A program made the position numbers and the translations under genes. The notes beneath the pieces were generated by a model. That model worked only from the letters and a program-made list of their open reading frames with translations. It made no database searches and was not told the origin of the DNA. Shown here piece after piece: positions 1 to 14,071 of a stretch of 64,000 bases of DNA (its first letter is position 1; each line of letters begins with the position of its first letter). This DNA is from a phage: NCBI GenBank assembly GCA_024674815.1, contig GCA_024674815.1_4104.1; one strand, written 5' to 3'.

Positions 1-133
1 CGGGCAGCTTCACGGGTAGCGTAGAATTTAGTAATCATGGTATACATCCTATTAGTTGAGTTAGTACTACAAGTTAGAGTCTATTATAAAGTACTATCTG
101 GGCAATGTCAAATAGTACTTTAAATGGATTCTA

Positions 134-457
134 TTACATATCTTTCTTACGTTTTACATCGTAGTATCGAACTGTTATTTCTTTGTTGATCTCTTCCTCG
201 ATGCGGTGAATAACTGTTTCTTTCGGGTTGAAACCTATAACGGTTTCTTTAATGATCTCCAAGCCCGTGTATTCGCCTTGTGTACCGTAACCGTAAGTAA
301 AGGTTTCATGTCCCAGGTCTTCCCAGCGGTCGCCAATTAATGCGGACACGTAGCAAGAGTGGTAAGTGTTACCGTTCCGATCAGTCCAGCGATTAACTTT
401 AATGTCAAAGGAGGTTACGATTTTCAGTTCTACTTTCTGGGTAAGGATCATAGTCAT
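134..457 (-). CDS. hypothetical small protein (107 aa)
   Basis: ATG ORF; promoter+leader-hairpin cassette directly upstream. Confidence 0.55.
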   Translation of the reverse strand: MTMILTQKVELKIVTSFDIKVNRWTDRNGNTYHSCYVSALIGDRWEDLGHETFTYGYGTQGEYTGLEIIKETVIGFNPKETVIHRIEEEINKEITVRYYDVKRKKDM

Positions 458-481
458 TTTTATTTCTCTCTCTTTGTTAGG

Positions 482-541
482 AGGGGAACCATTCCCCTCG
501 CTTGATGTAAACTATTATACAGTACTAAGATACTTTGTCAA
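482..541 (-). promoter_or_regulatory. PeSL-like cassette: sigma70-type promoter + leader stem-loop
   Basis: minus strand reads TTGACA-16nt-TGTATAAT then hairpin AGGGGAAUGGUUCCCCU before SD/ATG. Confidence 0.6.
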
Positions 542-544
542 TAC

Positions 545-727
545 TTATTTTTTGGAAAGTTTACGCATTAATTCTACGCTTTCTTGTGAACGTTTTGCTA
601 CCTGGCAAGCTGCATGGACAGTAAACATTTTTGTATAGTCTGACGCTTTGCCACCGAACCGAGCGGCACGTTCACGGGCACTTGGAACTAATACTATTTC
701 TTTCTTGCAGATAGTGCACTTAGCCAT
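545..727 (-). CDS. small Cys-containing (zinc-ribbon-like) protein, 60 aa
   Basis: internal ATG downstream of hairpin; track start is GTG inside cassette; CxxC motif. Confidence 0.45.
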   Translation of the reverse strand: MAKCTICKKEIVLVPSARERAARFGGKASDYTKMFTVHAACQVAKRSQESVELMRKLSKK

Positions 728-750
728 TTTTATTTCTCTCTCTTTGTTAG

Positions 751-812
751 GAGGGGAACCGTTTCCCCTCACTCGATGTAAACTATTATACAGTACTAAG
801 ATACTTTGTCAA
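751..812 (-). promoter_or_regulatory. PeSL-like cassette (near-identical copy of 482-541)
   Basis: ~85-bp direct repeat flanking CDS 545-727; TTGACA/TGTATAAT/GC hairpin. Confidence 0.6.
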
Positions 813-815
813 TAC

Positions 816-1091
816 TTAATTATTGTAAATGTCGTGAATAGTGATAAAGTTTTTACGACCGTAAACCTGCAAATCAATATCAATGTAGTGCTTATCAAGT
901 ACATCCTCGACGCTTAACGCGGTGTCGTGAATATCTTCGTAGAATTGAGGATCTACAATCTTGCTTAAGTCATCCGGCGTTAACTCATCGTTAAGCCGTT
1001 GAACCGCCTGGATATCTGCTTCACGTTTCCAGTCTTCCAGGTTAGTAGTCAGTACTTGTTCGATTTCGTTAGCTGTCAGTAGAATCCGCAT
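816..1091 (-). CDS. hypothetical protein (91 aa)
   Basis: ATG ORF, promoter at 1125-1152. Confidence 0.55.
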   Translation of the reverse strand: MRILLTANEIEQVLTTNLEDWKREADIQAVQRLNDELTPDDLSKIVDPQFYEDIHDTALSVEDVLDKHYIDIDLQVYGRKNFITIHDIYNN

Positions 1092-1124
1092 TTTAATGTT
1101 TCCTTATCAGTGGTTGATGTAAGT

Positions 1125-1152
1125 ATTATACTCTTTTACTTTCTATTGTCAA
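1125..1152 (-). promoter_or_regulatory. sigma70-type promoter
   Basis: TTGACA-16-TATAAT on minus strand. Confidence 0.5.
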
Positions 1153-1162
1153 ACTATTTTAT

Positions 1163-1234
1163 CAGGGGAGTTTTTCGTATGTCTTACTCCTGGACTACTT
1201 AACGGGGTTACTTGTTTCGTTCCCCGTCCTGATG
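1163..1234 (-). other. conserved ~70-nt structured leader element (copy 1 of 3)
   Basis: two GC stems; near-identical at 11985-12060, diverged copy ~8825-8885. Confidence 0.4.
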
Positions 1235-1240
1235 TAAAAC

Positions 1241-1268
1241 ATTATACTTTATTCTAAGTACAATGCAA
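1241..1268 (-). promoter_or_regulatory. sigma70-type promoter
   Basis: TTGCAT-16-TATAAT on minus strand. Confidence 0.45.
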
Positions 1269-1365
1269 GTACTTTTTAAAAATAGTTTTCAGTACTAGCC
1301 ACCAGCAAACAATAGATACATTTATGCACCCTGTGGGCTGATTTGTTTCTATGCGTATATAATAG

Positions 1366-1397
1366 CAAAGGGACTGACCGGAGTCAATCCCTTTTTC
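1366..1397 (-). terminator. hairpin terminator (family with UUCG-type loop)
   Basis: GGGAUUGAC-UCCG-GUCAGUCCC, fully paired only in minus transcript (G-U wobble); short T-run. Confidence 0.45.
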
Positions 1398-1405
1398 AAA
1401 TATTT

Positions 1406-1555
1406 TTAAACTTCTTTCGGGTTGCGATAGGTGATAGCGTTCGGGTACATTTGTTTAATGTTATTCCATGCCTGGTTAACATTATAACCACTTGAGCGAA
1501 TCAGTTGGTTACTACCGACACCTTGAAACACTACTTCGAATAAGAATTCTTTCAT
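1406..1555 (-). CDS. small hypothetical protein (49 aa)
   Basis: hand-translated ATG ORF below track threshold; start overlaps stop of upstream ORF. Confidence 0.35.
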   Translation of the reverse strand: MKEFLFEVVFQGVGSNQLIRSSGYNVNQAWNNIKQMYPNAITYRNPKEV

Positions 1556-1725
1556 GCTTTCACCTCGCTATCTGCTTTACCTTTACGCCAGGACATTACT
1601 AATTGTTCGCGTTGCCATAAGTCGAGTGATACAAAAAGTTTTGCGGTATCACTTTTAGGATACTCTCCAGTAGTACCTAACCGATAAAACAGATCTTTCA
1701 GTACTGATAATTCTACTTGAATCAT
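1552..1725 (-). CDS. small hypothetical protein (57 aa)
   Basis: hand-translated; ATGA overlap with downstream ORF. Confidence 0.35.
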   Translation of the reverse strand: MIQVELSVLKDLFYRLGTTGEYPKSDTAKLFVSLDLWQREQLVMSWRKGKADSEVKA

Positions 1726-1831
1726 TTTATTACTCCTGATTGCGTTAATACTTCTACTATTGCATGAATGATCATAAGTACAGCTAAAACAATAATCATC
1801 GGATTCATTTGCATAAGCTGTACTCCTTATA

Positions 1832-2044
1832 TTAATCTTTCAGCCAATGATCTTGAATGAATTTTTCACCGTATCCCTGTTTCATGGATTCTAACAGGCG
1901 TTCGCGGTGAGCGGCGGCATATTGCTCAGTACTATGCGTTACGCCAGGCTGATAACGTGATACCCCATCCGGTCCGATGTATTGTACATCCCACGGTTTA
2001 GCGTTAGTATCAGACCATTTACGAACGATTAGTTGACCTTGCAT
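1832..2044 (-). CDS. hypothetical protein (70 aa)
   Basis: ATG ORF; cassette upstream. Confidence 0.55.
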   Translation of the reverse strand: MQGQLIVRKWSDTNAKPWDVQYIGPDGVSRYQPGVTHSTEQYAAAHRERLLESMKQGYGEKFIQDHWLKD

Positions 2045-2061
2045 TTTTCTTTCCTCTCAGT

Positions 2062-2121
2062 GGGGAGAATCATTTCTCCCCTTCATGTAACTTATTATAC
2101 AGTACTAGATTATCTTGTCAA
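2062..2121 (-). promoter_or_regulatory. PeSL-like cassette
   Basis: TTGACA-16-TATAAT; hairpin GGGGAGAAAUGAUUCUCCCC. Confidence 0.6.
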
Positions 2122-2127
2122 TAGTTT

Positions 2128-2451
2128 TTATTCACCTTGTTTGAATTTAGTTTTCTCCATTGATTCCATGATTGCAACCAATACACCGTGGATCTCGCTT
2201 AACGCGGAATCACTAAAAGCATTAATGAATAGTCGATCATTCTCGCGAATATTTTTAATGTACTTTTCAGCAGTAGTTGCGAATTCATTCAACGGTAGAT
2301 CAAATGCTTTATCCCATGATGGATGGCGTAATTGTAACAGTACTGGATTATCACGATCACCAGGGGAAAACGTACCAGTGATGAAACATACGCCCGGAAT
2401 ACTTTCGAACTGGCAACGGACTTCCTTTGTGATAGTAGTATGAATGTACAT
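2128..2451 (-). CDS. hypothetical protein (107 aa)
   Basis: ATG ORF, 27 nt after upstream gene (co-transcribed). Confidence 0.55.
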   Translation of the reverse strand: MYIHTTITKEVRCQFESIPGVCFITGTFSPGDRDNPVLLQLRHPSWDKAFDLPLNEFATTAEKYIKNIRENDRLFINAFSDSALSEIHGVLVAIMESMEKTKFKQGE

Positions 2452-2478
2452 TTATTGTTATCCTCTATTAAATTAATA

Positions 2479-2673
2479 TTACAGTTTATGAATCAATTCT
2501 TTATCTAAGCGATAGCGTACATTATTAATAGTAACGGCATTGTTTTTAATGCTACGCTGTACAGGTCCACCAGCAATAACAAATGTTGCTTTATTACCCC
2601 GAACAATGATAGCACTTCCAGGATTACCGAAATCATCTTGTACTAAAATACTTGATAAGTTTTCCATTTTCAT
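2479..2673 (-). CDS. hypothetical protein (64 aa)
   Basis: ATG ORF; cassette upstream. Confidence 0.5.
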   Translation of the reverse strand: MKMENLSSILVQDDFGNPGSAIIVRGNKATFVIAGGPVQRSIKNNAVTINNVRYRLDKELIHKL

Positions 2674-2685
2674 TTCCTCTTAGTA

Positions 2686-2742
2686 GGGGAAGATGTTTCC
2701 CCTTGATGTAAGTACTATAACACTACTGAAAACTAAATGCAA
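2686..2742 (-). promoter_or_regulatory. PeSL-like cassette
   Basis: TTGCAT-16-TTATAG, hairpin GGGGAAACAUCUUCCCC. Confidence 0.5.
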
Positions 2743-2745
2743 GTA

Positions 2746-3102
2746 CTATGATAAAATCATGATAGGATATTCACTATCGATCAGTACCTCGAATCCGAAA
2801 CCTTCGTACCATTCTTTAAGATTAAAGGCGTTATCTTCTCCCGTATCGCATTCTAAAATGATACAATCTGAATCATCGGCGGCATCAATAAAGGCATTCA
2901 TTAATTCGTTACCTTCACCATTGCCCCGACTATCAGGATCAACATAAAGAGAATCAATAAACGCTACACGGTCATAATCAAGATCCGGTGCAATGATTCC
3001 ACGTTTCACAAACCAGTACTGCAATTGTGCTACTTTGCCCTGTACTTGATAGCCAGTGATCTCGCCATTGTCAGTAGTACGCGTGATATGTTGTATTCCC
3101 AT
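2746..3102 (-). CDS. GNAT-like acetyltransferase fold protein (118 aa)
   Basis: motif VDPDSRGNGEGNELM resembles GNAT motif A. Confidence 0.45.
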   Translation of the reverse strand: MGIQHITRTTDNGEITGYQVQGKVAQLQYWFVKRGIIAPDLDYDRVAFIDSLYVDPDSRGNGEGNELMNAFIDAADDSDCIILECDTGEDNAFNLKEWYEGFGFEVLIDSEYPIMILS

Positions 3103-3131
3103 GATTACTATCCTCAGTTAAGATATAAAAC

Positions 3132-3159
3132 ATTATACACTATCTTTCAGTACTGTCAA
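3132..3159 (-). promoter_or_regulatory. sigma70-type promoter
   Basis: TTGACA-16-TATAAT. Confidence 0.5.
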
Positions 3160-3165
3160 TACTTT

Positions 3166-3423
3166 TTATCTCATAGATCTATGCCAACAATTACGCGGAT
3201 CTCTTTTAAAAGTACTATCATGATCCTCCTGGCAAGTAATACAATACATGCACCCTATAACGGCCTGGCGTCGATTCTCAGGGATTTTATCGCCGCAGTC
3301 GAGGCAATGTACTAGTGATTCTCTTTGTGCGTTAATTTGCTTTCTAGCGTGGTTAACGGCTGCCTGAATCACTGCATGAATCTCGTCTTGTTCGGCCCCG
3401 TCTTTCGCGTATCCTACTGCCAT
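3166..3423 (-). CDS. TraR/DksA-family C4 zinc-finger protein (85 aa)
   Basis: CLDCG...x17...CMYCITCQ (CxxC-x17-CxxC). Confidence 0.6.
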   Translation of the reverse strand: MAVGYAKDGAEQDEIHAVIQAAVNHARKQINAQRESLVHCLDCGDKIPENRRQAVIGCMYCITCQEDHDSTFKRDPRNCWHRSMR

Positions 3424-3584
3424 TATTTTAACCTCATTATAAAAATACTATAGTACTGTAATGCTACAATAATACTACTAGTGCTAATCTTATTCAAACC
3501 ATATGATACTACATATCCACCAGCATTACCACGGATAGTAACTCCTTTGTACTGTCTATATAAATTCAACTGCGTATATTGCCT

Positions 3585-3657
3585 TTGATCAAGAATTGAT
3601 CAGAATTATACGCCTTATGCTAAATTGATCCAGTACTTTTTTGATCATTTATTGATC
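3585..3657. repeat. cluster of five TTGATC motifs (GATC-rich tract)
   Basis: 5 copies of TTGATC in 73 bp in an ORF-free leader. Confidence 0.5.
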
Positions 3658-3719
3658 GATATTATATAGTTACATTTGTGCACCCTATGGGTTAGTGACG
3701 TTCTCGTCTTGATGTAAGT

Positions 3720-3748
3720 ATTATGCCAGTACTGGATAATATTGTCAA
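3720..3748 (-). promoter_or_regulatory. sigma70-type promoter followed by conserved leader motif
   Basis: TTGACA-17-CATAAT; motif CACTAACCCAUAGGGUGC ~25 nt downstream. Confidence 0.5.
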
Positions 3749-3752
3749 TAGA

Positions 3753-3950
3753 TTATTTTAATTTTTTTCTGTCATTGATTAATGCTTTCAGTACTATACT
3801 AATAACTTGCAATGATTCATCAATGACAATGAAATTATTCTCTTTCATTAGATGATAGTTACCATTGATTGTATATTCTAACGAGTACTGTTTACGTTTA
3901 ATTTTTGATAATGTTTCTATTTGTTTTTGTACTGATTTCATGCTAATCAT
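3753..3950 (-). CDS. hypothetical protein (65 aa)
   Basis: track start is TTG; first ATG at 3950 used. Confidence 0.45.
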   Translation of the reverse strand: MISMKSVQKQIETLSKIKRKQYSLEYTINGNYHLMKENNFIVIDESLQVISIVLKALINDRKKLK

Positions 3951-4055
3951 TGTCAAACGTCCTGTAACGCATTCTAACGAGATAAACGGTTTAGTACTGG
4001 CATTGTATAGGGTAAATGATTAAAGCCCACCAGCGTTGACCAGTGGGCTATAATC

Positions 4056-4199
4056 TTACATCTTGCGGATAATCTTAACAGTATCTTTCACCGATTTACC
4101 GTCTTGCTGACATTGCTCGATCATCGCGTATTGTTCTGCGGTCAGATCCTCGCCAGTTTTTGCCAGTACTGCGTCGATGAATGAATCCAGTGCGATCAT
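4056..4199 (-). CDS. small hypothetical protein (47 aa)
   Basis: hand-translated ATG ORF; TTGACA-17-TATAAT promoter upstream. Confidence 0.35.
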   Translation of the reverse strand: MIALDSFIDAVLAKTGEDLTAEQYAMIEQCQQDGKSVKDTVKIIRKM

Positions 4200-4289
4200 T
4201 TTATTTCTCTCTTAGGTTAAGTTAACTACTGTTTATAAAACTTATTATACAGTACTATCAAACTATGTCAATAGTACTGGTAATATATT

Positions 4290-4469
4290 TTAGCGGTAGT
4301 CGTCGTATGCTTTATTCACCTGGCGAATATAACTTTCAAAGGCTTCGTCTACCGTTTCATACTCCCGAACATAATCACCATATGAAACTACATACATACC
4401 TTTTTGATCTTCAAACGTCATGATGATAGAATCCAGACCAACGATTTCAGTTTTTGCGATGATAGCCAT
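4290..4469 (-). CDS. small hypothetical protein (59 aa)
   Basis: hand-translated ATG ORF with upstream promoter. Confidence 0.4.
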   Translation of the reverse strand: MAIIAKTEIVGLDSIIMTFEDQKGMYVVSYGDYVREYETVDEAFESYIRQVNKAYDDYR

Positions 4470-4551
4470 TTTTAATTCCTTAATAGTGTAGTTGATAAAA
4501 GTTATTATGTCAGTACTATCAAACTATGTCAATAGTACTGTGATAATATTT

Positions 4552-4764
4552 TTAGTTAATGATAGTCAGTGTAAAATTGTAATCACCGCAGCGATATAGC
4601 ACGTTATTCCCAAATGTTCCAACTAATCGCACATCACACAAAACGCCGGTTTTTTCTTTTACTTCCTTGATACTTGTAACTCCTGTAATATCTTTATTAA
4701 AGTATTCATGATCTGAAAATAAAACTTGTTTTGCATTTTTTAATTTCGACCGGATATTAGCCAT
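4552..4764 (-). CDS. hypothetical protein (70 aa)
   Basis: ATG ORF; cassette upstream. Confidence 0.5.
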   Translation of the reverse strand: MANIRSKLKNAKQVLFSDHEYFNKDITGVTSIKEVKEKTGVLCDVRLVGTFGNNVLYRCGDYNFTLTIIN

Positions 4765-4784
4765 TTTGTTTTCTCTCTGTTAGT

Positions 4785-4844
4785 GGGGAGAATCATTTCT
4801 CCCCTTGATGTAAACTATTATACAGTACTATAATCTATTGTCAA
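4785..4844 (-). promoter_or_regulatory. PeSL-like cassette
   Basis: TTGACA-16-TATAAT; hairpin GGGGAGAAAUGAUUCUCCCC. Confidence 0.6.
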
Positions 4845-4859
4845 ACTATTTTTTTAATA

Positions 4860-5201
4860 TTATTCAAAATCTTCCGGTACTGACTGATAATCATCTTCAC
4901 CGTATGCACTTTCTAACCGCTCGCCAGTGTGATCATCAGTTAGTGAGTCATCCTCATAGTTCACGTCTACGCCAGTGATGTAAAACTGGCTATCGTCTGG
5001 ATCATTGAAATTAATTTTCTGTATGTTTACAATAACTGTATTGATACCCAGGACACTGCCATCAGCCGTTACAAAGTACTGATATTTTTCACAACCGCCT
5101 GAATTGAAACCGTAATTAATTTCGGCCCGACCATCATTTAAACGCAGTGCCTGGGCGATGATTTCATTTTCAAAGTTAGATTGAGCAATTGAGATAGTCA
5201 T
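4860..5201 (-). CDS. acidic hypothetical protein (113 aa)
   Basis: ATG ORF, D/E-rich. Confidence 0.55.
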   Translation of the reverse strand: MTISIAQSNFENEIIAQALRLNDGRAEINYGFNSGGCEKYQYFVTADGSVLGINTVIVNIQKINFNDPDDSQFYITGVDVNYEDDSLTDDHTGERLESAYGEDDYQSVPEDFE

Positions 5202-5221
5202 GATTTGTTTCCTTATTACCA

Positions 5222-5280
5222 GGGGAAACCGTTTCCCCTTTCGATGTAAAACATTATACGCTTATCAGGAAGTAATGCAA
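5222..5280 (-). promoter_or_regulatory. PeSL-like cassette
   Basis: TTGCAT-15-TATAAT; hairpin GGGGAAACGGUUUCCCC. Confidence 0.55.
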
Positions 5281-5283
5281 GTA

Positions 5284-5751
5284 CTATTTCACGTTAATTT
5301 CAAAGTACTGCTCTTTGATGTTTTCCTGTTGGTAAATCTCGTTTAATGCTTTAAGATCTAAAACCTGTTTACCTGCTGCCTGAATATACTTTTTAAGAGT
5401 CGCTAACAGCTTCTCAGGCGTGTTTGTAGTCTTACGTGTTGGGATCTTATCGTGCCCCATAGCGTAGTACTGCTTACGTGCTATAGTACTGATAACACTG
5501 CGGTACGGTTCCATGATCAGCTTGTCTGTGTATTCGTCGCTATCCCCAAACTTCATACCGTGGATCGCAAAGGTCATCATCATGCGGTCGTTATCGCGGA
5601 TATTGTGGGGGCAGTCGGCAAGCTCGCGAGTCAGTGACATAGTGATCCCCACGTCGCCACCCAGCGGTAAAGGTCGGGCGATAAAGAAACCGTTAGGGAA
5701 TACTTTCAGGAAGTTTTCTTGAACTGCTGCGACGAATTCGATGCTATTCAT
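5284..5751 (-). CDS. hypothetical protein (155 aa)
   Basis: ATG ORF. Confidence 0.6.
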   Translation of the reverse strand: MNSIEFVAAVQENFLKVFPNGFFIARPLPLGGDVGITMSLTRELADCPHNIRDNDRMMMTFAIHGMKFGDSDEYTDKLIMEPYRSVISTIARKQYYAMGHDKIPTRKTTNTPEKLLATLKKYIQAAGKQVLDLKALNEIYQQENIKEQYFEINVK

Positions 5752-5771
5752 AATTCATTTCCTTAATTAGT

Positions 5772-5831
5772 GGGGGAAGTTGTTTCCCCTCTCGATGTAA
5801 AACATTATACGCTTATTGAGATAGTTTGCAA
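5772..5831 (-). promoter_or_regulatory. PeSL-like cassette
   Basis: TTGCAA-16-TATAAT; hairpin. Confidence 0.55.
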
Positions 5832-5944
5832 GTACTTTCTACAAATACTTTTAAAATAGTTTTCAGTACTCAAACATTATACAATAGATACACTCCTGCA
5901 CCCTGTGGGCTAGTGAGCTATCTCTCAATGAATATATAATAGCA

Positions 5945-5975
5945 AACTGGCTGACCGAAGTCAACCACTTTTTCA
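5945..5975 (-). terminator. terminator hairpin with UUCG loop, TTGACT -35 embedded
   Basis: GGUUGAC-UUCG-GUCAGCC in minus transcript; TATTAT 17 nt downstream. Confidence 0.5.
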
Positions 5976-6110
5976 TTTATTTTTAGCTTTTAGAATCGCC
6001 GCCTTTCGCGTCATGCCTTGCTTGATGTACTCCTTTACTTTCGCTTTTTTAGCGTTTACCTTGTCTGCTTTCGTTTTAGGAGTACTGTAAATTATACCGT
6101 TAGGATTCAT
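5973..6110 (-). CDS. small basic protein (45 aa)
   Basis: hand-translated ATG ORF, Lys-rich. Confidence 0.3.
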   Translation of the reverse strand: MNPNGIIYSTPKTKADKVNAKKAKVKEYIKQGMTRKAAILKAKNK

Positions 6111-6196
6111 TTAAATCACCATAAAGAATAGATAGGTTACTAACAACGCCGCGATCAATGCACCGACCAGGGCCGAACTATAGTAAGCTAATGATT

Positions 6197-6349
6197 TCAT
6201 TTTTTAGCCTGAAAGTAATGTTTAATTTGAGCGGCGGTCAGTGCACAATTACGCAGGAAGTTTTCTGTATAACTTTTGCGAGTACTGAAAGAGAATTGAC
6301 CTTTGCCGTTACCGATAGTAACATCAAACCGAGCGTTGTATTGTTTCAT
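6197..6349 (-). CDS. small hypothetical protein (50 aa)
   Basis: ATG with AGGAGA SD; track start is an AUG inside the leader hairpin. Confidence 0.4.
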   Translation of the reverse strand: MKQYNARFDVTIGNGKGQFSFSTRKSYTENFLRNCALTAAQIKHYFQAKK

Positions 6350-6367
6350 TTTGATTCTCCTGTTATT

Positions 6368-6427
6368 GGGGAGAATCATTTCTCCCCTTCATGTAAACTA
6401 TTATACAGTACTAAAAACTAATTGCAA
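6368..6427 (-). promoter_or_regulatory. PeSL-like cassette
   Basis: TTGCAA-16-TATAAT; hairpin. Confidence 0.55.
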
Positions 6428-6430
6428 GTA

Positions 6431-6577
6431 TTATTTTTTAGATTTACGTAAACTTTCTACCATCTCAGGAGTAAGCCCCAGCGGGTAGGAAACCACTTCA
6501 TCCACAAAACGCAAAGGGAATACCCCATCTAAAGTTGAACGTGCTTTCTTATTAGTACTCTTTTTTGATGCTTTCAT
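6431..6577 (-). CDS. small hypothetical protein (48 aa)
   Basis: hand-translated ATG ORF; cassette upstream. Confidence 0.4.
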   Translation of the reverse strand: MKASKKSTNKKARSTLDGVFPLRFVDEVVSYPLGLTPEMVESLRKSKK

Positions 6578-6646
6578 TTCATATTCCTTAATTAGTGGGG
6601 AGAACTATTTCTCCACTTCATGTAAACTATTATACAGTACTAAAAA

Positions 6647-6856
6647 CTAATTGCAAGTATTATTTTCTAAAAAATGTTTGTATGCTGAATCAACAACTCT
6701 TTCGATAACATACGCTAACGGCACGTATCCAACTACATGACTACAATAAAAAGGACTACGATTAGAATCATCGTATGCAAATACTTTTTCAGGATCTGCA
6801 TCAATCACATACATATTAACCTTTAAGATGTCGATCTTATCCTGTACAGTAAGCAT
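6647..6856 (-). CDS. hypothetical protein (69 aa)
   Basis: ATG ORF. Confidence 0.5.
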   Translation of the reverse strand: MLTVQDKIDILKVNMYVIDADPEKVFAYDDSNRSPFYCSHVVGYVPLAYVIERVVDSAYKHFLENNTCN

Positions 6857-6861
6857 ATTAA

Positions 6862-7134
6862 TTAACCTTTTAAGTACTGGCTTAAGTAGTCTTTTTGATC
6901 TTCGGTGATTGCAGTCATCTTCCCTAGTACTGGATTAATGATATAATCCCCTGTAACGTCCAGTACAGCATTCTCAGGCTGTTTAACGGCAGGGGTAGCC
7001 ATAGCCATCGCCTGGACTTGTTCGACGCTGTAACGCTCATAAAGGCGGCATTCTTCCGGTGTTAACATAGCATCAATACGTTTCATTGGTTTAATGATGC
7101 TTTCAACTTCATTTAGTACTTGATTAACGTTCAT
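6862..7134 (-). CDS. hypothetical protein (90 aa)
   Basis: ATG ORF. Confidence 0.55.
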   Translation of the reverse strand: MNVNQVLNEVESIIKPMKRIDAMLTPEECRLYERYSVEQVQAMAMATPAVKQPENAVLDVTGDYIINPVLGKMTAITEDQKDYLSQYLKG

Positions 7135-7185
7135 GGTATAATCCCCAATATAAGCGGCCTAAATCGACCACTAACGATGATTTGA

Positions 7186-7455
7186 TCAATAGGTGTATGG
7201 TTGACGCTCAAACAATGATTGCACGTTGTACGCCCCGCTAATGGGCTTAGCTGGCAAATCAATTTTATATTGTTCACGCTTAAAGATAATAAAACGGCAA
7301 TTGTTTTTAACATCAAAATTGATTGAACGTTCCAGGAGTTTACCATCGTGCACAAATACAAGATAACCGCTTGCTACTTGTTTTGTAGTACTGGTTGCAA
7401 CCATAGACCGCCGAACATGTGTACCTGCATCGATTAAAGTACTGATATTTTTCAT
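7186..7455 (-). CDS. hypothetical protein (89 aa)
   Basis: ATG ORF; TTGACA-17-CATAAT promoter at ~7487-7515. Confidence 0.5.
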   Translation of the reverse strand: MKNISTLIDAGTHVRRSMVATSTTKQVASGYLVFVHDGKLLERSINFDVKNNCRFIIFKREQYKIDLPAKPISGAYNVQSLFERQPYTY

Positions 7456-7534
7456 TTTAGTTTCCTTAGTTGTCTTGATAAAATCTATTATGCCAGTACT
7501 ATCAAACTATGTCAATAGTACTGTGATAATATTT

Positions 7535-7678
7535 TTACTTACTTTTTGCTTTCTTGATTGCTTCCACCTGGTCGGCCCATTCTTTACCCCATACTTGTAA
7601 ATTATAATGGTACTGGCAAAGAGCAACGCCCCGCTTTAAACCCGTAATAGATTTCTGACCACATTGACAAGTTTTCAT
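7535..7678 (-). CDS. small Cys-rich protein (47 aa)
   Basis: hand-translated; C-x-C ... C-x2-H pattern. Confidence 0.4.
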   Translation of the reverse strand: MKTCQCGQKSITGLKRGVALCQYHYNLQVWGKEWADQVEAIKKAKSK

Positions 7679-7695
7679 ATTAGTTTCCTTGTAGT

Positions 7696-7756
7696 GGGGA
7701 GAACCATTTTCTCCCCTTGATGTAATGTATTATACTTTATTCGATTTACTTTGCAA
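7696..7756 (-). promoter_or_regulatory. PeSL-like cassette
   Basis: TTGCAA-16-TATAAT; hairpin GGGGAGAAAAUGGUUCUCCCC. Confidence 0.55.
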
Positions 7757-7765
7757 GTACTTTTT

Positions 7766-7993
7766 TTAATTTAATTCATCAAGGCAAAGGATACGCTCAA
7801 CGCCCAAATCAGTTAAACTAATCGACGGCACTTGATAGGTTTCAATGTATGCTACACTTGCCCACTGACCGAACTCATTAACGGCCCAGGTATTCATTGC
7901 ATTTTGCAATTCCGCACCTTCCTTGTTGGTAATGACTGCAACTACTTGTTCGTTGCCAGTAGTACCAGATACGCGAGTAATGATAATAGCCAT
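7766..7993 (-). CDS. hypothetical protein (75 aa)
   Basis: internal ATG downstream of cassette hairpin. Confidence 0.5.
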   Translation of the reverse strand: MAIIITRVSGTTGNEQVVAVITNKEGAELQNAMNTWAVNEFGQWASVAYIETYQVPSISLTDLGVERILCLDELN

Positions 7994-8230
7994 TGTTTTG
8001 ATTCCTTTGATTTGGAAGGAGAACCGTTTCCCCCTCTCGATGTAAAACATTATACGCTAATCTCTTAATCGTGCAAGTACTTTTTATTACTTTTTGCAAA
8101 ATACTTTAAACGCTCTCAATCGCGTTCTTACAGCCTTAACGCCACCAGCTAGGGCAATGCATCAGATAATCAGTTTAATGCGTTAGAATCGTTTCTAGGC
8201 GGTGCTGGTGGCATGGTAAACTATAAACAC

Positions 8231-8256
8231 AAAAAAGCCCACCGTTTAAGGTGGGC
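8231..8256 (-). terminator. intrinsic terminator
   Basis: GCCCACC-uuaaac-GGUGGGC then U6 in minus transcript. Confidence 0.6.
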
Positions 8257-8278
8257 TAGTGATTCAATACTTTAATTG

Positions 8279-8761
8279 TTATGCTTCAACTTTGCGATGA
8301 GCTTCGATCCATTCCTCGCGAGTCATACCGCTTTCTTTGATAGCGTCCAGTACTACCGCAATGCAGTTACCGCGTACAGGAATCAAATGTTCTTCACCGT
8401 TATCAAGTACTACAGTAACACGTTCTTGAATCCATTTTTTAGGTTTAGATTCCGGCTTATCTTCACCGTACTTAACCGCCAGGGCTTTATGTGCCATTTC
8501 AACAACCACTTCCAGATCCAATCCAGACACCGCCGCCTGGATACTTTCAATTGTTGCTTGCAGTTCGGCTTCACGGGCTTTTTTCTGTTCTTCCAGTTCT
8601 GCTACCTTTTTGGCTTGTAATTCTTTCGCTTCACTGTAAGCAATGTTAAAATTGTTGCGTACAGCTTTCATGGTATCGTTATCCAGGTCAGCCAGCAATT
8701 CAGCAGCAATAACAGTATCGTTTGAAATCAGTGCTTTCAGGAATGATTTTACATTAGCCAT
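8279..8761 (-). CDS. hypothetical coiled-coil protein (160 aa)
   Basis: ATG with GAGGA SD; track start is TTG. Confidence 0.6.
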   Translation of the reverse strand: MANVKSFLKALISNDTVIAAELLADLDNDTMKAVRNNFNIAYSEAKELQAKKVAELEEQKKAREAELQATIESIQAAVSGLDLEVVVEMAHKALAVKYGEDKPESKPKKWIQERVTVVLDNGEEHLIPVRGNCIAVVLDAIKESGMTREEWIEAHRKVEA

Positions 8762-8956
8762 TTTATAAATCCTCAATTAAAGTTTAGTTTACGTTTATTA
8801 GTGTATCAAAGTTTTATCGACGTGTCCAGTTTTTCGTTCGACTTACTGGCGGTCTACTTAGTGCTCCCCGTCTTGATGTAATACATTCTACGCCTTTTTG
8901 TGGTAATGTCAACTACTTTTTTAAAACTATTTTTAAAGTATGCAGTACTACAAAAC

Positions 8957-8982
8957 AAAAAAGCCCACTGTTTAAGGTGGGC
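8957..8982 (-). terminator. intrinsic terminator (copy of 8231-8256)
   Basis: same hairpin + U-run. Confidence 0.6.
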
Positions 8983-9000
8983 TAGTGATTCAGTACTATA

Positions 9001-9300
9001 TTATAAACAGTTAATTACTCCGGTGTGCGTTACTTTCTCAGTATCCATAACCGTGACCGATCCACGCTTAGTACTTGCATCATAATAAATTGTTGTGCTA
9101 CCGTTTTCGTCTTCTTCATGGAACGGCCCGTTTTTAAATGCTTCTGGCTGGATCTCTAAATCCTTTAAAACAATCTCGCCTGTACTTTCATTGGTCATCG
9201 CTACCGTGCACTGAATGAATTTTTCACTACTTACATCTAACGACGCATTAACAGCGAAAGAGGAAACAGATAAAGCCAGGGCGATGATTGCAATTTTCAT
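9001..9300 (-). CDS. secreted/periplasmic small protein (99 aa)
   Basis: N-terminal signal-peptide-like MKIAIIALALSVSSFA. Confidence 0.6.
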   Translation of the reverse strand: MKIAIIALALSVSSFAVNASLDVSSEKFIQCTVAMTNESTGEIVLKDLEIQPEAFKNGPFHEEDENGSTTIYYDASTKRGSVTVMDTEKVTHTGVINCL

Positions 9301-9320
9301 TTGATTATCCTTAGTTACCA

Positions 9321-9379
9321 GGGGAAACCGTTTCCCCTTGCGATGTAAAATATTATACAGTACTAAAAACTAATTGCAA
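9321..9379 (-). promoter_or_regulatory. PeSL-like cassette
   Basis: TTGCAA-16-TATAAT; hairpin. Confidence 0.55.
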
Positions 9380-9384
9380 GTACT

Positions 9385-9621
9385 TTATGATTTTTTATAA
9401 AACATTTCGGCAGTGATATTTTTACCCGTTGGTTGTACTTTATCCAGAATTTTTTGATGCCCTGGCCGTCCAAATGAATATGATCCGTAAACCGTAAACC
9501 AGTAGTTACCCTCAGTGTTTACATGTACAGCACAATAGGGAACGCCCCGCGATTCATCACCAATAAAGTGTGATACCGTTCCCGTTACATTAGCAGACGT
9601 TGATTTGATTTGTTCAAGCAT
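9385..9621 (-). CDS. hypothetical protein (78 aa)
   Basis: ATG ORF; cassette 9643-9694. Confidence 0.5.
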   Translation of the reverse strand: MLEQIKSTSANVTGTVSHFIGDESRGVPYCAVHVNTEGNYWFTVYGSYSFGRPGHQKILDKVQPTGKNITAEMFYKKS

Positions 9622-9728
9622 TTTCTTATTCCTTAGTTACCAGGGGAACCGCTCCCCTATGCAAAACATTATACGCGTTTAAAAACTATTAGCAAGTATT
9701 TTAATAAAAAGTATTTGAAAAATAGTTG

Positions 9729-9757
9729 TTGACAAGTGCATCCAGTACTGGCATAAT
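9729..9757 (+). promoter_or_regulatory. plus-strand sigma70-type promoter
   Basis: TTGACA-17-CATAAT on plus strand, no ORF downstream. Confidence 0.5.
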
Positions 9758-9763
9758 TACTAC

Positions 9764-9868
9764 ATCAAGACGAAACAGTCACTAACCCACCGGGTGCCGA
9801 GATCCGTCTATTAAATGATTCAGTACTGAAAAAGTAACGGGGAGTTATTATCTCCCCGCGTTGTTATT
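9764..9868 (+). ncRNA. candidate ~100-nt small RNA
   Basis: promoter 9729-9757, conserved CACUAACCCACCGGGUGC motif, hairpin+U-run terminator 9838-9870. Confidence 0.3.
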
Positions 9869-10085
9869 TGGTAAGGTATAAACAGAAGTCACCTTTATTT
9901 GCTACGCCGCCAGTGTAACGCGATGAATAGTTAGAAATATCTTGTACTTCTGCTATTACCAGTGTATCATCATTCATTTCGTCGCAGAAGCAAACGGCTG
10001 GATCTTTTACGCCGATATTGTCTGCATGTTCCCGCATAGATTTAACCAGTGCTTCCAGTTGAGAAAGAGTAGTGATATTAGCCAT
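9864..10085 (-). CDS. hypothetical protein (73 aa)
   Basis: ATG with GAGGA SD; cassette 10105-10163. Confidence 0.5.
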   Translation of the reverse strand: MANITTLSQLEALVKSMREHADNIGVKDPAVCFCDEMNDDTLVIAEVQDISNYSSRYTGGVANKGDFCLYLTK

Positions 10086-10169
10086 TTTATTTTCCTCATT
10101 ACCAGGGAGAACCATTTCTCCCCTTGATGTAAACTATTATACAGTACTAAAAACTAATTGCAAGTACTT

Positions 10170-10358
10170 TTAATTAAATTCCATAAAATCATTTTCAACG
10201 TGCACAACAATCTGATTATTTTTAAAGGACGCAGAAAACTCTATACAATCATAAACCGCTTTTTCTGTTACCAGACTATGAGCACCAATCGGATTAATTG
10301 GGGATTGAATTGTTTCAATCTCGTTACCTTGTTCATTAACGATTAAAATATTAAACAT
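10170..10358 (-). CDS. hypothetical protein (62 aa)
   Basis: ATG ORF. Confidence 0.45.
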   Translation of the reverse strand: MFNILIVNEQGNEIETIQSPINPIGAHSLVTEKAVYDCIEFSASFKNNQIVVHVENDFMEFN

Positions 10359-10397
10359 TGCCGTTACTCCTGGATAGTGTTAACTCGATATAAAGTA

Positions 10398-10580
10398 TTA
10401 TACGCCTTTATTGCTTAGTGTCCAGTGATCACGCATCATACGCCCCGCACGATCCCAGCTAGTAGGCATGGGTATGCCTTGCAATTCGTTAGGGGAGATC
10501 TCGACCTCGATCCCTACATCAATAACAGTCATTCCAGCTTTCGCAGCTTGCTCGCGGATAACCTCAGATAATGTTGTCAT
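10398..10580 (-). CDS. hypothetical protein (60 aa)
   Basis: ATG ORF. Confidence 0.45.
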   Translation of the reverse strand: MTTLSEVIREQAAKAGMTVIDVGIEVEISPNELQGIPMPTSWDRAGRMMRDHWTLSNKGV

Positions 10581-10654
10581 GATTAAAGCTCCTGGATAGT
10601 GTTAACTCGATATAAAGTATTATACAGTACTGAAAACTAATTGCAAGTACTTTT

Positions 10655-10915
10655 TCAATATTGTTTGTCGTTGTCTTCCTCGATGAATTGACCGACGAAA
10701 TGATCTACTTTCGCTTTGAGGCTTTTATAATCTTCTTCTACTTCCTTTAAACGTTCCTGGTAGTATTCCAGGGCTTGAATATACGCCGCCTCAGCAGTTT
10801 TTGCACGCATAGCTAAATTCATTCCACGCGTTTCATCAAATAGCCAATAACCATCGGTGCAATGACTGATAGATAATGATTTACTTAGTACTGTATAGGC
10901 AATTACTTTACTCAT
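10655..10915 (-). CDS. hypothetical protein (86 aa)
   Basis: ATG ORF. Confidence 0.5.
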   Translation of the reverse strand: MSKVIAYTVLSKSLSISHCTDGYWLFDETRGMNLAMRAKTAEAAYIQALEYYQERLKEVEEDYKSLKAKVDHFVGQFIEEDNDKQY

Positions 10916-10972
10916 TAGATAACCCTCAGTAAAGGCGGGAACTATTACCCGCCATTATCTCAGTACTGAATA

Positions 10973-11212
10973 TTACATTCCAACCATTGCAGCACGGATC
11001 GCAGTAGTGCTATACTTAAAGCCGTCCGGCGTTGTAGTAGTACCGTTGGCTTTTAATCTGCGGTACATACATTCCGCAGCAATATCTTTAGTTCTACTTT
11101 GTGCGATGCAACTTTGAGCAAGCCGATACAATGACTCACCGTTATTAATCCAAAGGCTTACATTCCAATGAGTTTTGTTTTTGTGTCCGTTGTAAGTTTT
11201 AGTACTAGCCAT
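10973..11212 (-). CDS. hypothetical protein, paralog A of 13014-13253 (79 aa)
   Basis: shared GHKNKTHWNVSLWINN and TPDGFKYSTTAIRAAMVGM termini. Confidence 0.55.
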   Translation of the reverse strand: MASTKTYNGHKNKTHWNVSLWINNGESLYRLAQSCIAQSRTKDIAAECMYRRLKANGTTTTPDGFKYSTTAIRAAMVGM

Positions 11213-11230
11213 TTTTAAATCCTCGTTTGA

Positions 11231-11290
11231 GCGGGGAACCACTCCCCGCCTCGATATAAAGTATTATACGCTTTTAAACTTAGTTTGCAA
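11231..11290 (-). promoter_or_regulatory. PeSL-like cassette
   Basis: TTGCAA-16-TATAAT; hairpin GCGGGGAGUGGUUCCCCGC. Confidence 0.55.
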
Positions 11291-11302
11291 GTACTTTTTA
11301 AA

Positions 11303-11914
11303 TTAATATTCGATTGATTCCACTACTCCATCAATAACATTGAATTGATATTCGTTACCCTCAATCAGTGCTGTAATGTTTTCAGTAGTGAATTGATCCT
11401 CATATGCATTCTCTAAATCACGGTACAACTTGCGGGATAATTCACGAATAGTTTCAGTGAGTAGTTCCTCAAGCTCATTAACTAACGTTTCTTGTTTTGC
11501 GGTTAAATCAGTGTAAGCCGATTCAATGTACCCGCTTACAGTATTCTCATGCGAGTAGTGGGAGTGCGAACGCTTTACACTCATCGCCAAATCATCTTCA
11601 TTCAGCAAGTGACGGATTGAGCGATACTTAGTTAATGCTCTTACCTTGCGTAAAAACTTCACTGCGTCAACGTGGTCAGTACTGATTGATGCACCGTCAC
11701 CCTGGGACCAAAAGCCACTGAATCGTAAATCAGCGTCAGTAATGCCATATTCCGGTAGTACTGTTTCTTTATAGTATTCAATTTCACTTTCAGAAAAATA
11801 ATCATCGTTTAAGTTTTTTTCACGTTCCCGAACCAGTTCGATAGCTGACGTTTGTTGTTCTGCGTTCAATTCAGAAAAAGCCATAACATAAGTAGTAGTA
11901 GTGATAGTTTTCAT
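11303..11914 (-). CDS. acidic hypothetical protein (203 aa)
   Basis: ATG ORF, D/E-rich. Confidence 0.6.
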   Translation of the reverse strand: MKTITTTTYVMAFSELNAEQQTSAIELVREREKNLNDDYFSESEIEYYKETVLPEYGITDADLRFSGFWSQGDGASISTDHVDAVKFLRKVRALTKYRSIRHLLNEDDLAMSVKRSHSHYSHENTVSGYIESAYTDLTAKQETLVNELEELLTETIRELSRKLYRDLENAYEDQFTTENITALIEGNEYQFNVIDGVVESIEY

Positions 11915-11984
11915 TTTGTAACCCTCATTCAGTAGTTGATGTAAGTATTATACGCTTTTAAAAACAATTGTCAAACTATTTTAT

Positions 11985-12060
11985 CAGGGGAGTTTTTCGT
12001 GTGCCTTACTCCTGGGCTACTTAATGGGGAGTTACTTATTTCGTTCCCCGTCCTGATGTA
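11985..12060 (-). other. conserved structured leader element (copy 3)
   Basis: near-identical to 1163-1234. Confidence 0.4.
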
Positions 12061-12139
12061 AAACATTATACGCCTTTAAACATAGTTTGCAAGTACTTTT
12101 TAAAAATAGTTTTCTGTACTGAATAGTAAAAAAAAAGTA

Positions 12140-12168
12140 TTGACAGCATTATCAAGTACTGGCATAAT
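12140..12168 (+). promoter_or_regulatory. plus-strand sigma70-type promoter
   Basis: TTGACA-17-CATAAT; conserved motif downstream. Confidence 0.5.
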
Positions 12169-12283
12169 ATACCCCATGACAACAGCTAACCCACCGGGTG
12201 CACAATTGTAACTGTAATAAACTACTTTTTCTATAGATACACTCCCGCACCCTATGGGCTACGGCTTATCTGCCAATGAATAC

Positions 12284-12312
12284 ATTATGCCAGTACTGAC
12301 AAAATAAGTCAA
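12284..12312 (-). promoter_or_regulatory. minus-strand promoter convergent with 12140-12168
   Basis: TTGACT-17-CATAAT; conserved motif downstream. Confidence 0.5.
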
Positions 12313-12342
12313 TACCGGCAATTGTAAAGATTTGTAAACTGC

Positions 12343-12573
12343 TTATACTGCAATCGCGTCCAGGCTGTAATAATAATAAGTGCCGTATTGGTGTACTTTA
12401 TTACCTTTTATTTCAGTACTGAATGAATCCGAACGGTTTGCATATGATGTTAATTTAAAGTACTTTGATTTGCTGATACGTTGCCATACACCACAGATCC
12501 GCTGTAAGTAAGTAGTTTTATTCGTGGTAGTATCTTTTACGGTTTTAACTTCAGTCATATACATATTAGTCAT
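12343..12573 (-). CDS. hypothetical protein (76 aa)
   Basis: ATG ORF; cassette 12595-12653. Confidence 0.5.
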   Translation of the reverse strand: MTNMYMTEVKTVKDTTTNKTTYLQRICGVWQRISKSKYFKLTSYANRSDSFSTEIKGNKVHQYGTYYYYSLDAIAV

Positions 12574-12660
12574 TTTTATTACTCCAGGTTATAGGCGGGA
12601 AGAGTTCCCGCTCTCGATGTAAAACATTATACGCCTTTAAACATAGTTTGCAAGTACTTT

Positions 12661-12927
12661 TTATTCAAGTACTGCAATCTTTTTAGTACGGTACACGGTC
12701 ACGCGGTTGCCCTTTCGGTCGAGCTTTATTTCTACCACTCGACGCGATACACTATCGGGACTTTTTAAGGCCGCTAACCAGTACTGTAATGATCTGGCGG
12801 TACTACGCTTTACAATGGCCCAACGTTTACCACGTTCCGATTGTACGCCCATATCTTTAAACGTTGCCCCGTCCTGGCGAGCGGCGATCCGAGCTTGTTC
12901 ACGCGTCGCAAAATACTTAATATTCAT
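12661..12927 (-). CDS. basic hypothetical protein (88 aa)
   Basis: internal ATG; track start is GTG in promoter. Confidence 0.45.
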   Translation of the reverse strand: MNIKYFATREQARIAARQDGATFKDMGVQSERGKRWAIVKRSTARSLQYWLAALKSPDSVSRRVVEIKLDRKGNRVTVYRTKKIAVLE

Positions 12928-13013
12928 GCTGTTGCCCTTATCGTTGGTGTATGAATAAAACACTATTATAAAGTACTATCGCAAAAAAATGATAGTACTT
13001 TAAATAAATTCTA

Positions 13014-13253
13014 TTACATTCCAACCATCGCCGCACGGATCGCAGTAGTGCTATATTTGAATCCGTCCGGTGTTTTATCTTGTCCAGTCTGTTCTAAAAA
13101 TAACATCATATGACGGGCCGCATCATTGCGATTAGTGCTATCGTTAATAAAGTCCTGGGCCAACCGGTATAATGATTCATCGTTATTAATCCAAAGGCTT
13201 ACATTCCAATGAGTTTTGTTTTTGTGACCTAAGAACATTTTTGATTTAGCCAT
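13014..13253 (-). CDS. hypothetical protein, paralog B of 10973-11212 (79 aa)
   Basis: conserved termini, variable middle; cassette 13273-13330. Confidence 0.55.
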   Translation of the reverse strand: MAKSKMFLGHKNKTHWNVSLWINNDESLYRLAQDFINDSTNRNDAARHMMLFLEQTGQDKTPDGFKYSTTAIRAAMVGM

Positions 13254-13345
13254 TTTTTAATCCTCTTATATAGTGGGGAACTATTCCCCACCTGATGTAA
13301 AACATTATACGCTTTTAAACTTAGTTTGCAAGTACTTTATTAAAC

Positions 13346-13708
13346 TTATTTGTAAATTTTGCCACTGTCAGCCCATACCAGGAAACGAGGCATATTATCC
13401 CATGCATCTTGTTTTAAGTTTAAGCCGTGCAATTCCTCAGTTGTTGCCATCCCTGGTACTGGCTTACTACACACCGCGAAATTTTCGCCCATGTACTGAT
13501 AAACCATCGTTAAATCATTTGAGATCATTACATGGATCATTGAATCAAGCATCAAAGTAGCGGCGTATTGTTCACGCTTAAGCGGCAACATTGCAATAAG
13601 TTCCCGATAAGCTGCAATGTGAATTTTTACAGTTTCAGCCGGAAGACCTTTCATCTCATCGCGGAAGTTTACCAGGTTAAGCATGATTTTATTGATTTGA
13701 GTCGCCAT
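13346..13708 (-). CDS. hypothetical protein (120 aa)
   Basis: internal ATG after cassette hairpin 13733-13749. Confidence 0.55.
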   Translation of the reverse strand: MATQINKIMLNLVNFRDEMKGLPAETVKIHIAAYRELIAMLPLKREQYAATLMLDSMIHVMISNDLTMVYQYMGENFAVCSKPVPGMATTEELHGLNLKQDAWDNMPRFLVWADSGKIYK

Positions 13709-13823
13709 CGTTTTAATCTCTCTTAATGTGTAGCGGGAAGTGTTCCCGCTCTCGATGTAAAACATTATACGCTTTTATCAGTACGGTGCAAGTACTTTCT
13801 ACAAATACTTTTAAAATAGTTTT

Positions 13824-13919
13824 CTTTCTATATAGGAGTACTATTATTCAGTACTGAATCAATCCAGGGGAACTATCTTTCTATATAGGAGTACTATTAT
13901 TCAGTACTGAATCAATCCA
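13824..13919. repeat. 2 x 43-bp direct repeat
   Basis: unit TCTTTCTATATAGGAGTACTATTATTCAGTACTGAATCAATCCA twice, 53-bp period. Confidence 0.6.
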
Positions 13920-14071
13920 CCAAATCACTACTACACCCCATAAAACGGCCTCAGACGCATTCTAACGCATTAATACACATAAGCTATACATTTGCACCAT
14001 TCCAATCATTCCAGGGCTTTACAGGCCGTTTAAACGCGTTAAATTATTTTCAATTATTTTGTTTTTAGGTA

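Follow-up and report, generated by a model that had tools for sequence, protein, structure and literature searches.

Five clustered TTGATC sites at a predicted early promoter of an Asteriusvirus jumbo coliphage

The 64,000-nucleotide stretch of DNA analysed here, referred to as the window, includes five copies of TTGATC on its plus strand, at positions 3585, 3596, 3625, 3641 and 3652 (exact match search). This cluster is real and non-random, chance being excluded, and the five motifs are most likely an ordinary gene switch. To judge from the sequence, they probably act as a functional protein-binding array at the DNA level. More tentatively, they may form an operator array on a promoter, P2, that is bound by the product of the small cassette in which they are found (autoregulation), perhaps in a methylation-sensitive manner. 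Neither this element nor the small-protein family encoded by the cassette is described in the papers searched.

Statistics, layout and genomic setting of the cluster

The positions of the five motifs, all on the same strand and within 73 bp, are exactly those listed in an earlier sequence-only reading of this DNA, which had also suggested comparing the local GATC density with the window average. The segment 3587-3657 has these five GATC and no others, and the local density (5 per 73 bp) is about 32 times the window average. The window as a whole includes 137 GATC (2.1 per kb), a little fewer than the shuffled sequences have (162 ± 12 on average). By Poisson statistics, a given 73-bp span would include at least five GATC with a probability of 6.8e-7, which becomes about 6e-4 over the whole window. 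When windows were simulated with a first-order Markov model, five GATC in 70 bp were reached in 2 of 1000, and at least four TTGATC on the same strand in none of 1000, the maximum being three, in 7 runs.

The distances between consecutive GATC are 11, 29, 16 and 11 bp, defining two pairs and a single unit. Pair A (3585-3601) and pair B (3641-3657) each consist of two TTGATC units 11 bp apart and read, on the minus strand, GATCAAttcttGATCAA and GATCAAtaaatGATCAA, respectively; the single unit occupies nucleotides 3625 to 3630. Only two GATC-N7-GATC pairs are found in the 64-kb window, those at 3587-3601 and 3643-3657. Both pairs are included in a 27-nt direct repeat with a 56-bp spacing, located at 3584-3610 (TTTGATCAAGAATTGATCAGAATTATA) and 3640-3666 (TTTGATCATTTATTGATCGATATTATA), so that the minus strand has the arrangement TATAAT-N3-GATCAA-N5-GATCAAA twice, 56 bp apart.

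In BLAST analysis the window matched Escherichia phage WPEC3 at 98.5% identity and other Asteriusvirus jumbo phages, among them 121Q and PBECO4, at 90-98%, and on this sequence identity it is the DNA of an Asteriusvirus (121Q/PBECO4-like) jumbo coliphage. The homologous stretch in phage vB_Ec-M-J lies inside an annotated 21.5-kb direct terminal repeat, and the TTGATC cluster is about 12 kb inside this repeat, away from the genome end. The terminal repeat is crowded with small genes, every one of them on the window's minus strand. In its terminal-repeat part the window has about three times the GATC density of the remainder: the counts per 4 kb are 24, 17, 14 and 12, and then 5, 4, 7, 4 and so on, with a sharp drop at about 16 kb (window 1-16000 versus 16001-64000). 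This step in density coincides with the probable edge of the terminal repeat, as placed by alignment to vB_Ec-M-J. Searches against Rfam, of the whole window at the gathering threshold and of nucleotides 3300 to 3900 at E <= 10, gave no relevant match, and a search for tRNA and tmRNA genes found none.

The early regions of Rak2/121Q-like jumbo phages consist of dozens of tiny uncharacterised genes behind near-identical promoters, and P2 is the sole clearly rewired promoter in the repeat region of this window. The cassette, 330 bp in length and naturally present or absent among isolates, is a concrete and cheap entry to the regulation of these phages, and one that also offers a defined 8-bp site and a candidate 48-amino acid binder.

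Promoter P2 and the 330-bp cassette

Two promoters on the minus strand were found in the region. P1 (3720-3748) is a near-consensus sigma-70 promoter according to a promoter scan, with 11 of 12 consensus matches; it consists of TTGACA (3748-3743), a 17-nt spacer and CATAAT (3725-3720), with a TG, and corresponds to the promoter that the sequence-only reading had located here. The second, P2, is a predicted promoter at 3605-3636 that includes GTAC (3636-3633), the -35 hexamer TGGATC (3632-3627), a 16-nt spacer and the -10 hexamer TATAAT (3610-3605), with a predicted start near 3598. Owing to its weak -35, P2 was not flagged in the generic promoter scan. Counted from the predicted start, the five GATC begin at about -59, -48, -32, -3 and +9. 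The cores of pair A thus span about -3 to +1 and +9 to +12, that of the single unit (3627-3630) falls within the -35 hexamer, at the position where the paralogous promoters read TTGCAA, and those of pair B are found at about -59 and -48.

These paralogues are 13 near-identical early promoters located on the minus strand in the first 14 kb of the window (1270-13800), each before a small gene and here named class B. They read aaaaaGTAC-TTGCA(A/C/T)-N16-TATAAT-gttttacatc, the representative form being aaaaaGTAC-TTGCAA-N16-TATAAT-gttttacatcgag, and in 12 of the 13 a short, G/C-rich inverted repeat (GGGGAA..TTCCCC in the typical case) comes next, ahead of a ribosome-binding site. P2 can be considered a fourteenth copy, lying exactly under the TTGATC cluster. 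Its sequence, aaaaaaGTAC-TGGATC-N16-TATAAT, is in register with the 13 paralogues, sharing the A-tract and GTAC directly 5' of the -35, the 16-nt spacer and the TATAAT, and retaining even the ...aaggcg ahead of the -10. Other parts of the scaffold have been exchanged: the TTGCA(A/C/T) -35, the gttttacatc and the downstream inverted repeat, and likewise the upstream A/T region, are all replaced in P2 by GATC-containing sequence. Between about -50 and +45 there is no GATC in the 13 class B paralogues, versus five in P2. By this sequence comparison P2 is a specialised class B derivative, not a standard member. The block of conserved sequence 3' of P1 (3665-3719, minus strand), which contains CCCATAGGGTGC (3691-3680) and then aaatgtaactat, is one copy of a repeated element of the terminal-repeat region whose occurrence is not linked to that of the TTGATC sites.

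P1, the conserved element, the TTGATC sites with P2, and a small gene together form a cassette of 330 bp (3422-3761) bounded by a 10-bp direct repeat, ATTATTTTAA, at 3422-3431 and 3752-3761. In phage G17, a member of the same genus whose locus was read directly, the cassette is absent and one copy of ATTATTTTAA is found at the junction. Phage Sharanji has a reduced BLAST coverage like that of G17, the comparison in this case being one of coverage only. From these alignments the cassette is dispensable, being present or absent among Asteriusvirus isolates. The ATTATTTTAA repeat is also the ribosome-binding region of two successive genes, and in G17 the upstream gene is joined directly to the start region of the DksA-like gene. 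Paralogous intergenic modules at about 1270-1400 and 5830-5970, as well as the equivalent in phage GAP32, have a similar layout and include neither the gene nor the sites.

The small gene (3423-3569, minus strand; PHROG 38664) encodes 48 amino acids, has a weak TTG start, and its TAA stop overlaps the next ATG (TAATG). It occupies what the sequence-only reading had described as an ORF-free stretch of about 300 nt forming a long untranslated leader ahead of the gene at 3166-3423; the motifs instead overlie the second promoter, P2, which would serve this intervening gene. In PBECO4-type phages about one third of the nucleotides of the gene differ while the frame is kept, with 63% amino acid identity, and a profile search identified homologues 31-38% identical in Erwinia phage Hallingskeid and in metagenomic contigs (E 1e-16 to 1e-21). 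About 15 family members of 47 to 74 amino acids were among the 17 matches listed in a search of 1.8 billion representative proteins, the two further matches being long repetitive proteins that are probably spurious. When the family was compared with the phage collection by tblastn, the matches were confined to Asteriusvirus and Hallingskeid. Going by this conservation of the reading frame, 3423-3569 is a real gene. The gene downstream (3166-3423, minus strand), which had been correctly noted before, encodes an 85-amino acid DksA/TraR-type protein with a C4 zinc finger and, in this phage, has its translation coupled to that of the small gene. Erwinia-type phages have, downstream of the small gene, a gene that does not encode a zinc finger, and therefore the TTGATC cluster travels with the small gene and not with the DksA-like gene.

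The 48-amino acid protein has no Pfam match at E <= 1 and no match by sequence to a PDB chain. An AlphaFold2 model built from an 8-sequence alignment (pLDDT 88.7) includes four beta strands and a C-terminal helix, the antiparallel sheet being packed on the helix as in the AP2 and integrase-arm-binding folds. The closest structural match to the model was the AP2 DNA-binding domain, although unrelated proteins consisting of beta strands plus a helix score too. At the level of sequence profiles the protein does not belong to the AP2 family, hhalign against the AP2 domain of AtERF1 giving a probability of 0.4%, and a fold search of BFVD with the model returned only uncharacterised phage proteins. 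The model makes DNA binding by the small protein plausible.

Conservation of the sites and their possible readers

All five TTGATC sites are kept in close relatives. In PBECO4-type phages copies 1 and 2 have been lost and another has been gained, generating GATCAAaaaatGATCtGATCAAtacttGATCAA; the sites in these phages are two 11-bp pairs at -59/-48 and -43/-32, all of them 5' of the P2 start. In Hallingskeid and six metagenomic variants there is an 11-bp pair at about -58/-47, 5' of the -35, and a second pair that brackets the -10 in the sequence TTGACT-N13-GATCAATaATTGATC, a perfect 7-1-7 palindrome. A pair at the position of pair B is thus found in all three clades. Among more distant members, P0009, P0010, P0012 and P0013 have a GATC abutting the -10, as GATCAATAAT, and P0022 has a TGATCA pair in the spacer. 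The distant members P0015 and P0017 have one GATC and none upstream, respectively, and therefore the sites are not universal to the family, unless the binding specificity has diverged.

Alignment of 41 sites gave the logo T(-2) 28, T(-1) 37, GATC, A(+1) 35, A(+2) 34, with variation at the five spacer bases. Since the flanks are kept while the spacers vary, the selected unit is the palindrome TTGATCAA and not the bare GATC. About 190 kb was scanned for such pairs, consisting of the 64-kb window and fetched loci amounting to about 125 kb. In this DNA, 11-bp GATC pairs were found solely within 100 bp upstream of a gene of the family, and the TTGATCAA pairs were found upstream of the small-gene homologues in three diverged clades and nowhere else; the 64-kb window has none beyond those of the cluster. 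The array is absent wherever the small gene is absent (G17, and the gene-less modules of the window and of GAP32).

The arrangement could be explained as follows. TTGATCAA palindromes, mainly as same-face pairs 11 bp apart, would have been built onto one copy, P2, of the standard early promoter, and the resulting array would control the small gene at 3423-3569 and, in this phage, the coupled DksA/TraR-like gene. We infer that a sequence-specific DNA-binding protein occupies the sites and sets the activity of P2. The sites at -3, +9 and -32 overlap the core promoter, where occupancy would cause repression, and the upstream pair may provide cooperative anchoring or activation. The likeliest reader would be the 48-amino acid product of the cassette, with its AP2-like beta-sheet fold in the model, in which case the cassette would be self-contained and autoregulated. 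GATC is present in every site, so that occupancy might in addition depend on adenine methylation, the enzyme being host Dam or one of the Dam family from the phage. A point against this explanation is that the window has no other TTGATCAA pairs; a regulator acting there on its own promoter only would need targets elsewhere. A cis-element remains linked to its gene whoever reads it, and therefore the co-occurrence of array and gene does not identify the binder. In its compactness, and in having palindromic sites over the -35, -10 or start of its own promoter, the 330-bp module resembles the repressor cassettes of the Arc/Mnt and Cro types. A further likeness is a product of about 50 amino acids with a DNA-binding-like fold in the model; the differences are that the modelled product is AP2/integrase-arm-binding-like, and not a ribbon-helix-helix or helix-turn-helix protein, and that autoregulation is only proposed for this cassette.

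The main rival of an operator array, which we regard as rather unlikely, is a switch whose GATC pairs would have no readers other than Dam and SeqA of the host, or a phage Dam-family methyltransferase, the activity of P2 changing between fully methylated injected DNA and hemimethylated replicated DNA with no need for a dedicated binder. The host E. coli has Dam, and GATC, the invariant core of every unit, falls on promoter positions (the -35, the start, or next to the -10) at which N6-methyladenine can influence RNA polymerase; the enrichment of GATC in the terminal-repeat part of the window also fits. Neither SeqA nor Dam, however, is known to require TT/AA flanks, and recognition by GATC alone would leave free the flanks that the logo shows to be kept (T(-1) in 37, A(+1) in 35 and A(+2) in 34 of the 41 sites) next to variable spacers. 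The preferred targets of SeqA are GATC pairs that share a helical face, with spacings of about 10 or 20 bp (PMC2912659), and the 11-bp spacing of pairs A and B agrees with this preference. The cluster also has a high local GATC density in common with SeqA targets such as oriC and GATC clusters of that spacing. The spacings of 16 and 29 bp, on the other hand, are off-phase, and some lineages have a single site, which SeqA binds poorly. The GATCs of the E. coli oriC region have mixed flanks, with GATCAA only scattered and no 11-bp TTGATCAA pairs, unlike the conserved flanks of the cluster, which moreover overlies the promoter of a dispensable accessory gene. This conservation of flanks therefore indicates a sequence-specific reader besides or instead of Dam/SeqA, or an added constraint. 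Asteriusvirus does encode a 173-amino acid PF05869 'Dam' N6-adenine methyltransferase (E 7e-32) that is kept in 31 phage records (PMC11895373), which counts in favour of a methylation switch. It is encoded outside the window, is found in phages with and without the cassette (it is gp542 in Sharanji, fetched locus 13316-13837), and belongs to a family different from that of the E. coli Dam and T4 Dam queries (approximate sequences), tblastn of which against the window gave no match. The sequence-only reading had taken the clustered GATC as characteristic of Dam/SeqA-controlled or protein-binding regulatory regions. What has held up is a non-random cluster in a regulatory region with the appearance of a protein-binding array; its Dam/SeqA part gains from the two same-face spacings and the Dam-family enzyme of the genus, and loses from a unit that is TTGATCAA, with flanks that oriC does not have.

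Regulatory regions in which Dam sites are combined with a protein reader include agn43 and P22 gtr (OxyR), pap (Lrp) and Mu mom (OxyR). As is proposed for the cluster, the GATCs in these regions are found within a longer protein-recognition sequence in or beside a promoter, and the P22 gtr region has four GATC as two pairs. The TTGATCAA unit, in contrast, does not fit the consensus of OxyR or Lrp, and the cluster is located in the early region of a virulent jumbo phage, with nothing suggesting phase variation. Were the 48-amino acid AP2-fold protein a phage reader of Dam sites in the TTGATCAA context, with methylation-dependent binding, which we consider improbable, the cassette would be a compact, writer-independent 'methylation or replication sensor' timing early gene expression. 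The methylation state would be written by host Dam or by the phage PF05869 enzyme, and the chromosome of the host might have matching GATC sites that the small protein occupies as well. The host oriC as a target of a TTGATCAA reader is unsupported, given its lack of 11-bp pairs and its scattered GATCAA. Methylation sensitivity of the reader would link the Dam-family enzyme of the phage to gene timing; otherwise the cassette would be another small repressor-operator pair.

It is also conceivable, though unlikely, that the sites are operators for another factor, either a regulator present across Enterobacterales hosts or another early phage protein, the small gene being regulated cargo. The evidence from the sites themselves (conservation among clades, logo, placement on P2) applies equally to this possibility, and tandem-binding regulators typically have sites of this hexamer-N5-hexamer organization, repeated at 11 bp. 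Yet to our knowledge TTGATCAA-N3-TTGATCAA matches no known enterobacterial regulator: FNR (TTGAT-N4-ATCAA), Fur, RutR and OxyR do not fit, and we know of no convincing fit to the site among IHF, PhoP/ArcA-type repeats and the H-NS nucleation motif. In 25 E. coli chromosomes an 18-mer identical to pair A, TTGATCAAGAATTGATCA, precedes a tyrosine recombinase gene by 25 nt, which would suit a host regulator, but the match has a BLAST E value of 0.6 and may be due to chance, and the phage window has no further such sites. An RNA element is a still weaker contender, and we regard it as very improbable. In the P1 transcript each pair would form a short hairpin (GAUCAA/UUGAUC) affecting the stability or translation of the small gene with its weak TTG start; each pair is indeed also an inverted repeat (-4.1 to -5.9 kcal/mol, z-scores -1.9 to -4.5), and the paralogous promoters have a hairpin in the 5' UTR. 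The whole leader, however, is not unusually structured (z = -1.6), covariation is lacking, the sequence itself and not just the pairing is kept, and there is no match to an Rfam family. One Erwinia-type pair brackets the -10 of P2 and the PBECO4-type sites are all 5' of the P2 start, a placement that fits a function at the DNA level. Least credible of all is a replication-origin or packaging-type site comparable to P1 pac with its TGATCA/G hexamers or P1 oriR with its GATC repeats. P1 pac includes seven clustered TGATCA/G hexamers carrying Dam sites, and four of the five units in the cluster match this hexamer (PMC10028697). The likeness ends there: the cluster is not at a packaging start or genome end but within the 21.5-kb terminal repeat, about 12 kb in, every lineage has it linked to a promoter and a small gene, and the cassette is absent from G17 (and, by BLAST coverage only, from Sharanji). 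The origin or pac reading was rejected on the dispensability of the cassette. The operator array on P2 is the reading that we retain.

As for the E. coli sequence identical to pair A, it occurs in 25 of 5426 complete E. coli genomes. An example is E. coli AMSCJX02 (NZ_CP031105.1, 583244-583268), where the recombinase has 189 amino acids and adjoins an IS4 element.

Other elements in the window

A second repeated element, CCCNNNGGGTGC, is present in eight copies, all in the first 15 kb of the window: 1326-1337(-), 3680-3691(-), 5898-5909(-), 9786-9797(+), 12190-12201(+), 12247-12258(-), 14128-14139(+) and 14344-14355(+). It is usually followed by A-N4-TGTAnCTA and a -10-like hexamer, and in the copies examined a sigma-70-like -10 precedes it by about 20-30 nt. 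Some copies have the TTGACT of that promoter inside a terminator-like hairpin (GGGGTTGAC-UUCG-GUUAGCCCC) with compensatory changes between copies. The element, which has no Rfam match, was found in 59 Rak2-like phage records that include Escherichia, Klebsiella, Salmonella, Cronobacter, Serratia, Pectobacterium and Yersinia phages. Both the CCCNNNGGGTGC elements and the class B promoters end, as the high GATC density does, at about 16 kb.

Consensus promoters that oppose all genes and point into ORF-free stretches were found at 9727-9870 (+), 12137-12310 (both strands) and 14070-14480 (+). The first of these stretches ends at a bidirectional terminator, GGGGAGttattatCTCCCC, and the second has two facing promoters about 170 bp apart. 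From their sequence these stretches are candidates for small or antisense RNAs.

The palindrome AGTACT occurs 267 times in the whole window versus 22.8 ± 4.6 expected, for example at 3632-3637 and 3728-3733. The excess results in part from promoter scaffolds, as aaAGTACTTGCAA is found at the -35 of the 13 paralogues and cAGTACTgg just 5' of the -10 in P1-type promoters; many copies are outside promoters too.

Evenly spaced TTGATC motifs were also found elsewhere in the window, at 39114, 39306, 39513 and 39720. Their regular spacing is due to a 207-bp tandem repeat at 39074-39834 (3.8 copies, 77% matches), located inside an ORF of 373 amino acids (38722-39843, minus strand) whose product has protein repeats of about 69 amino acids.
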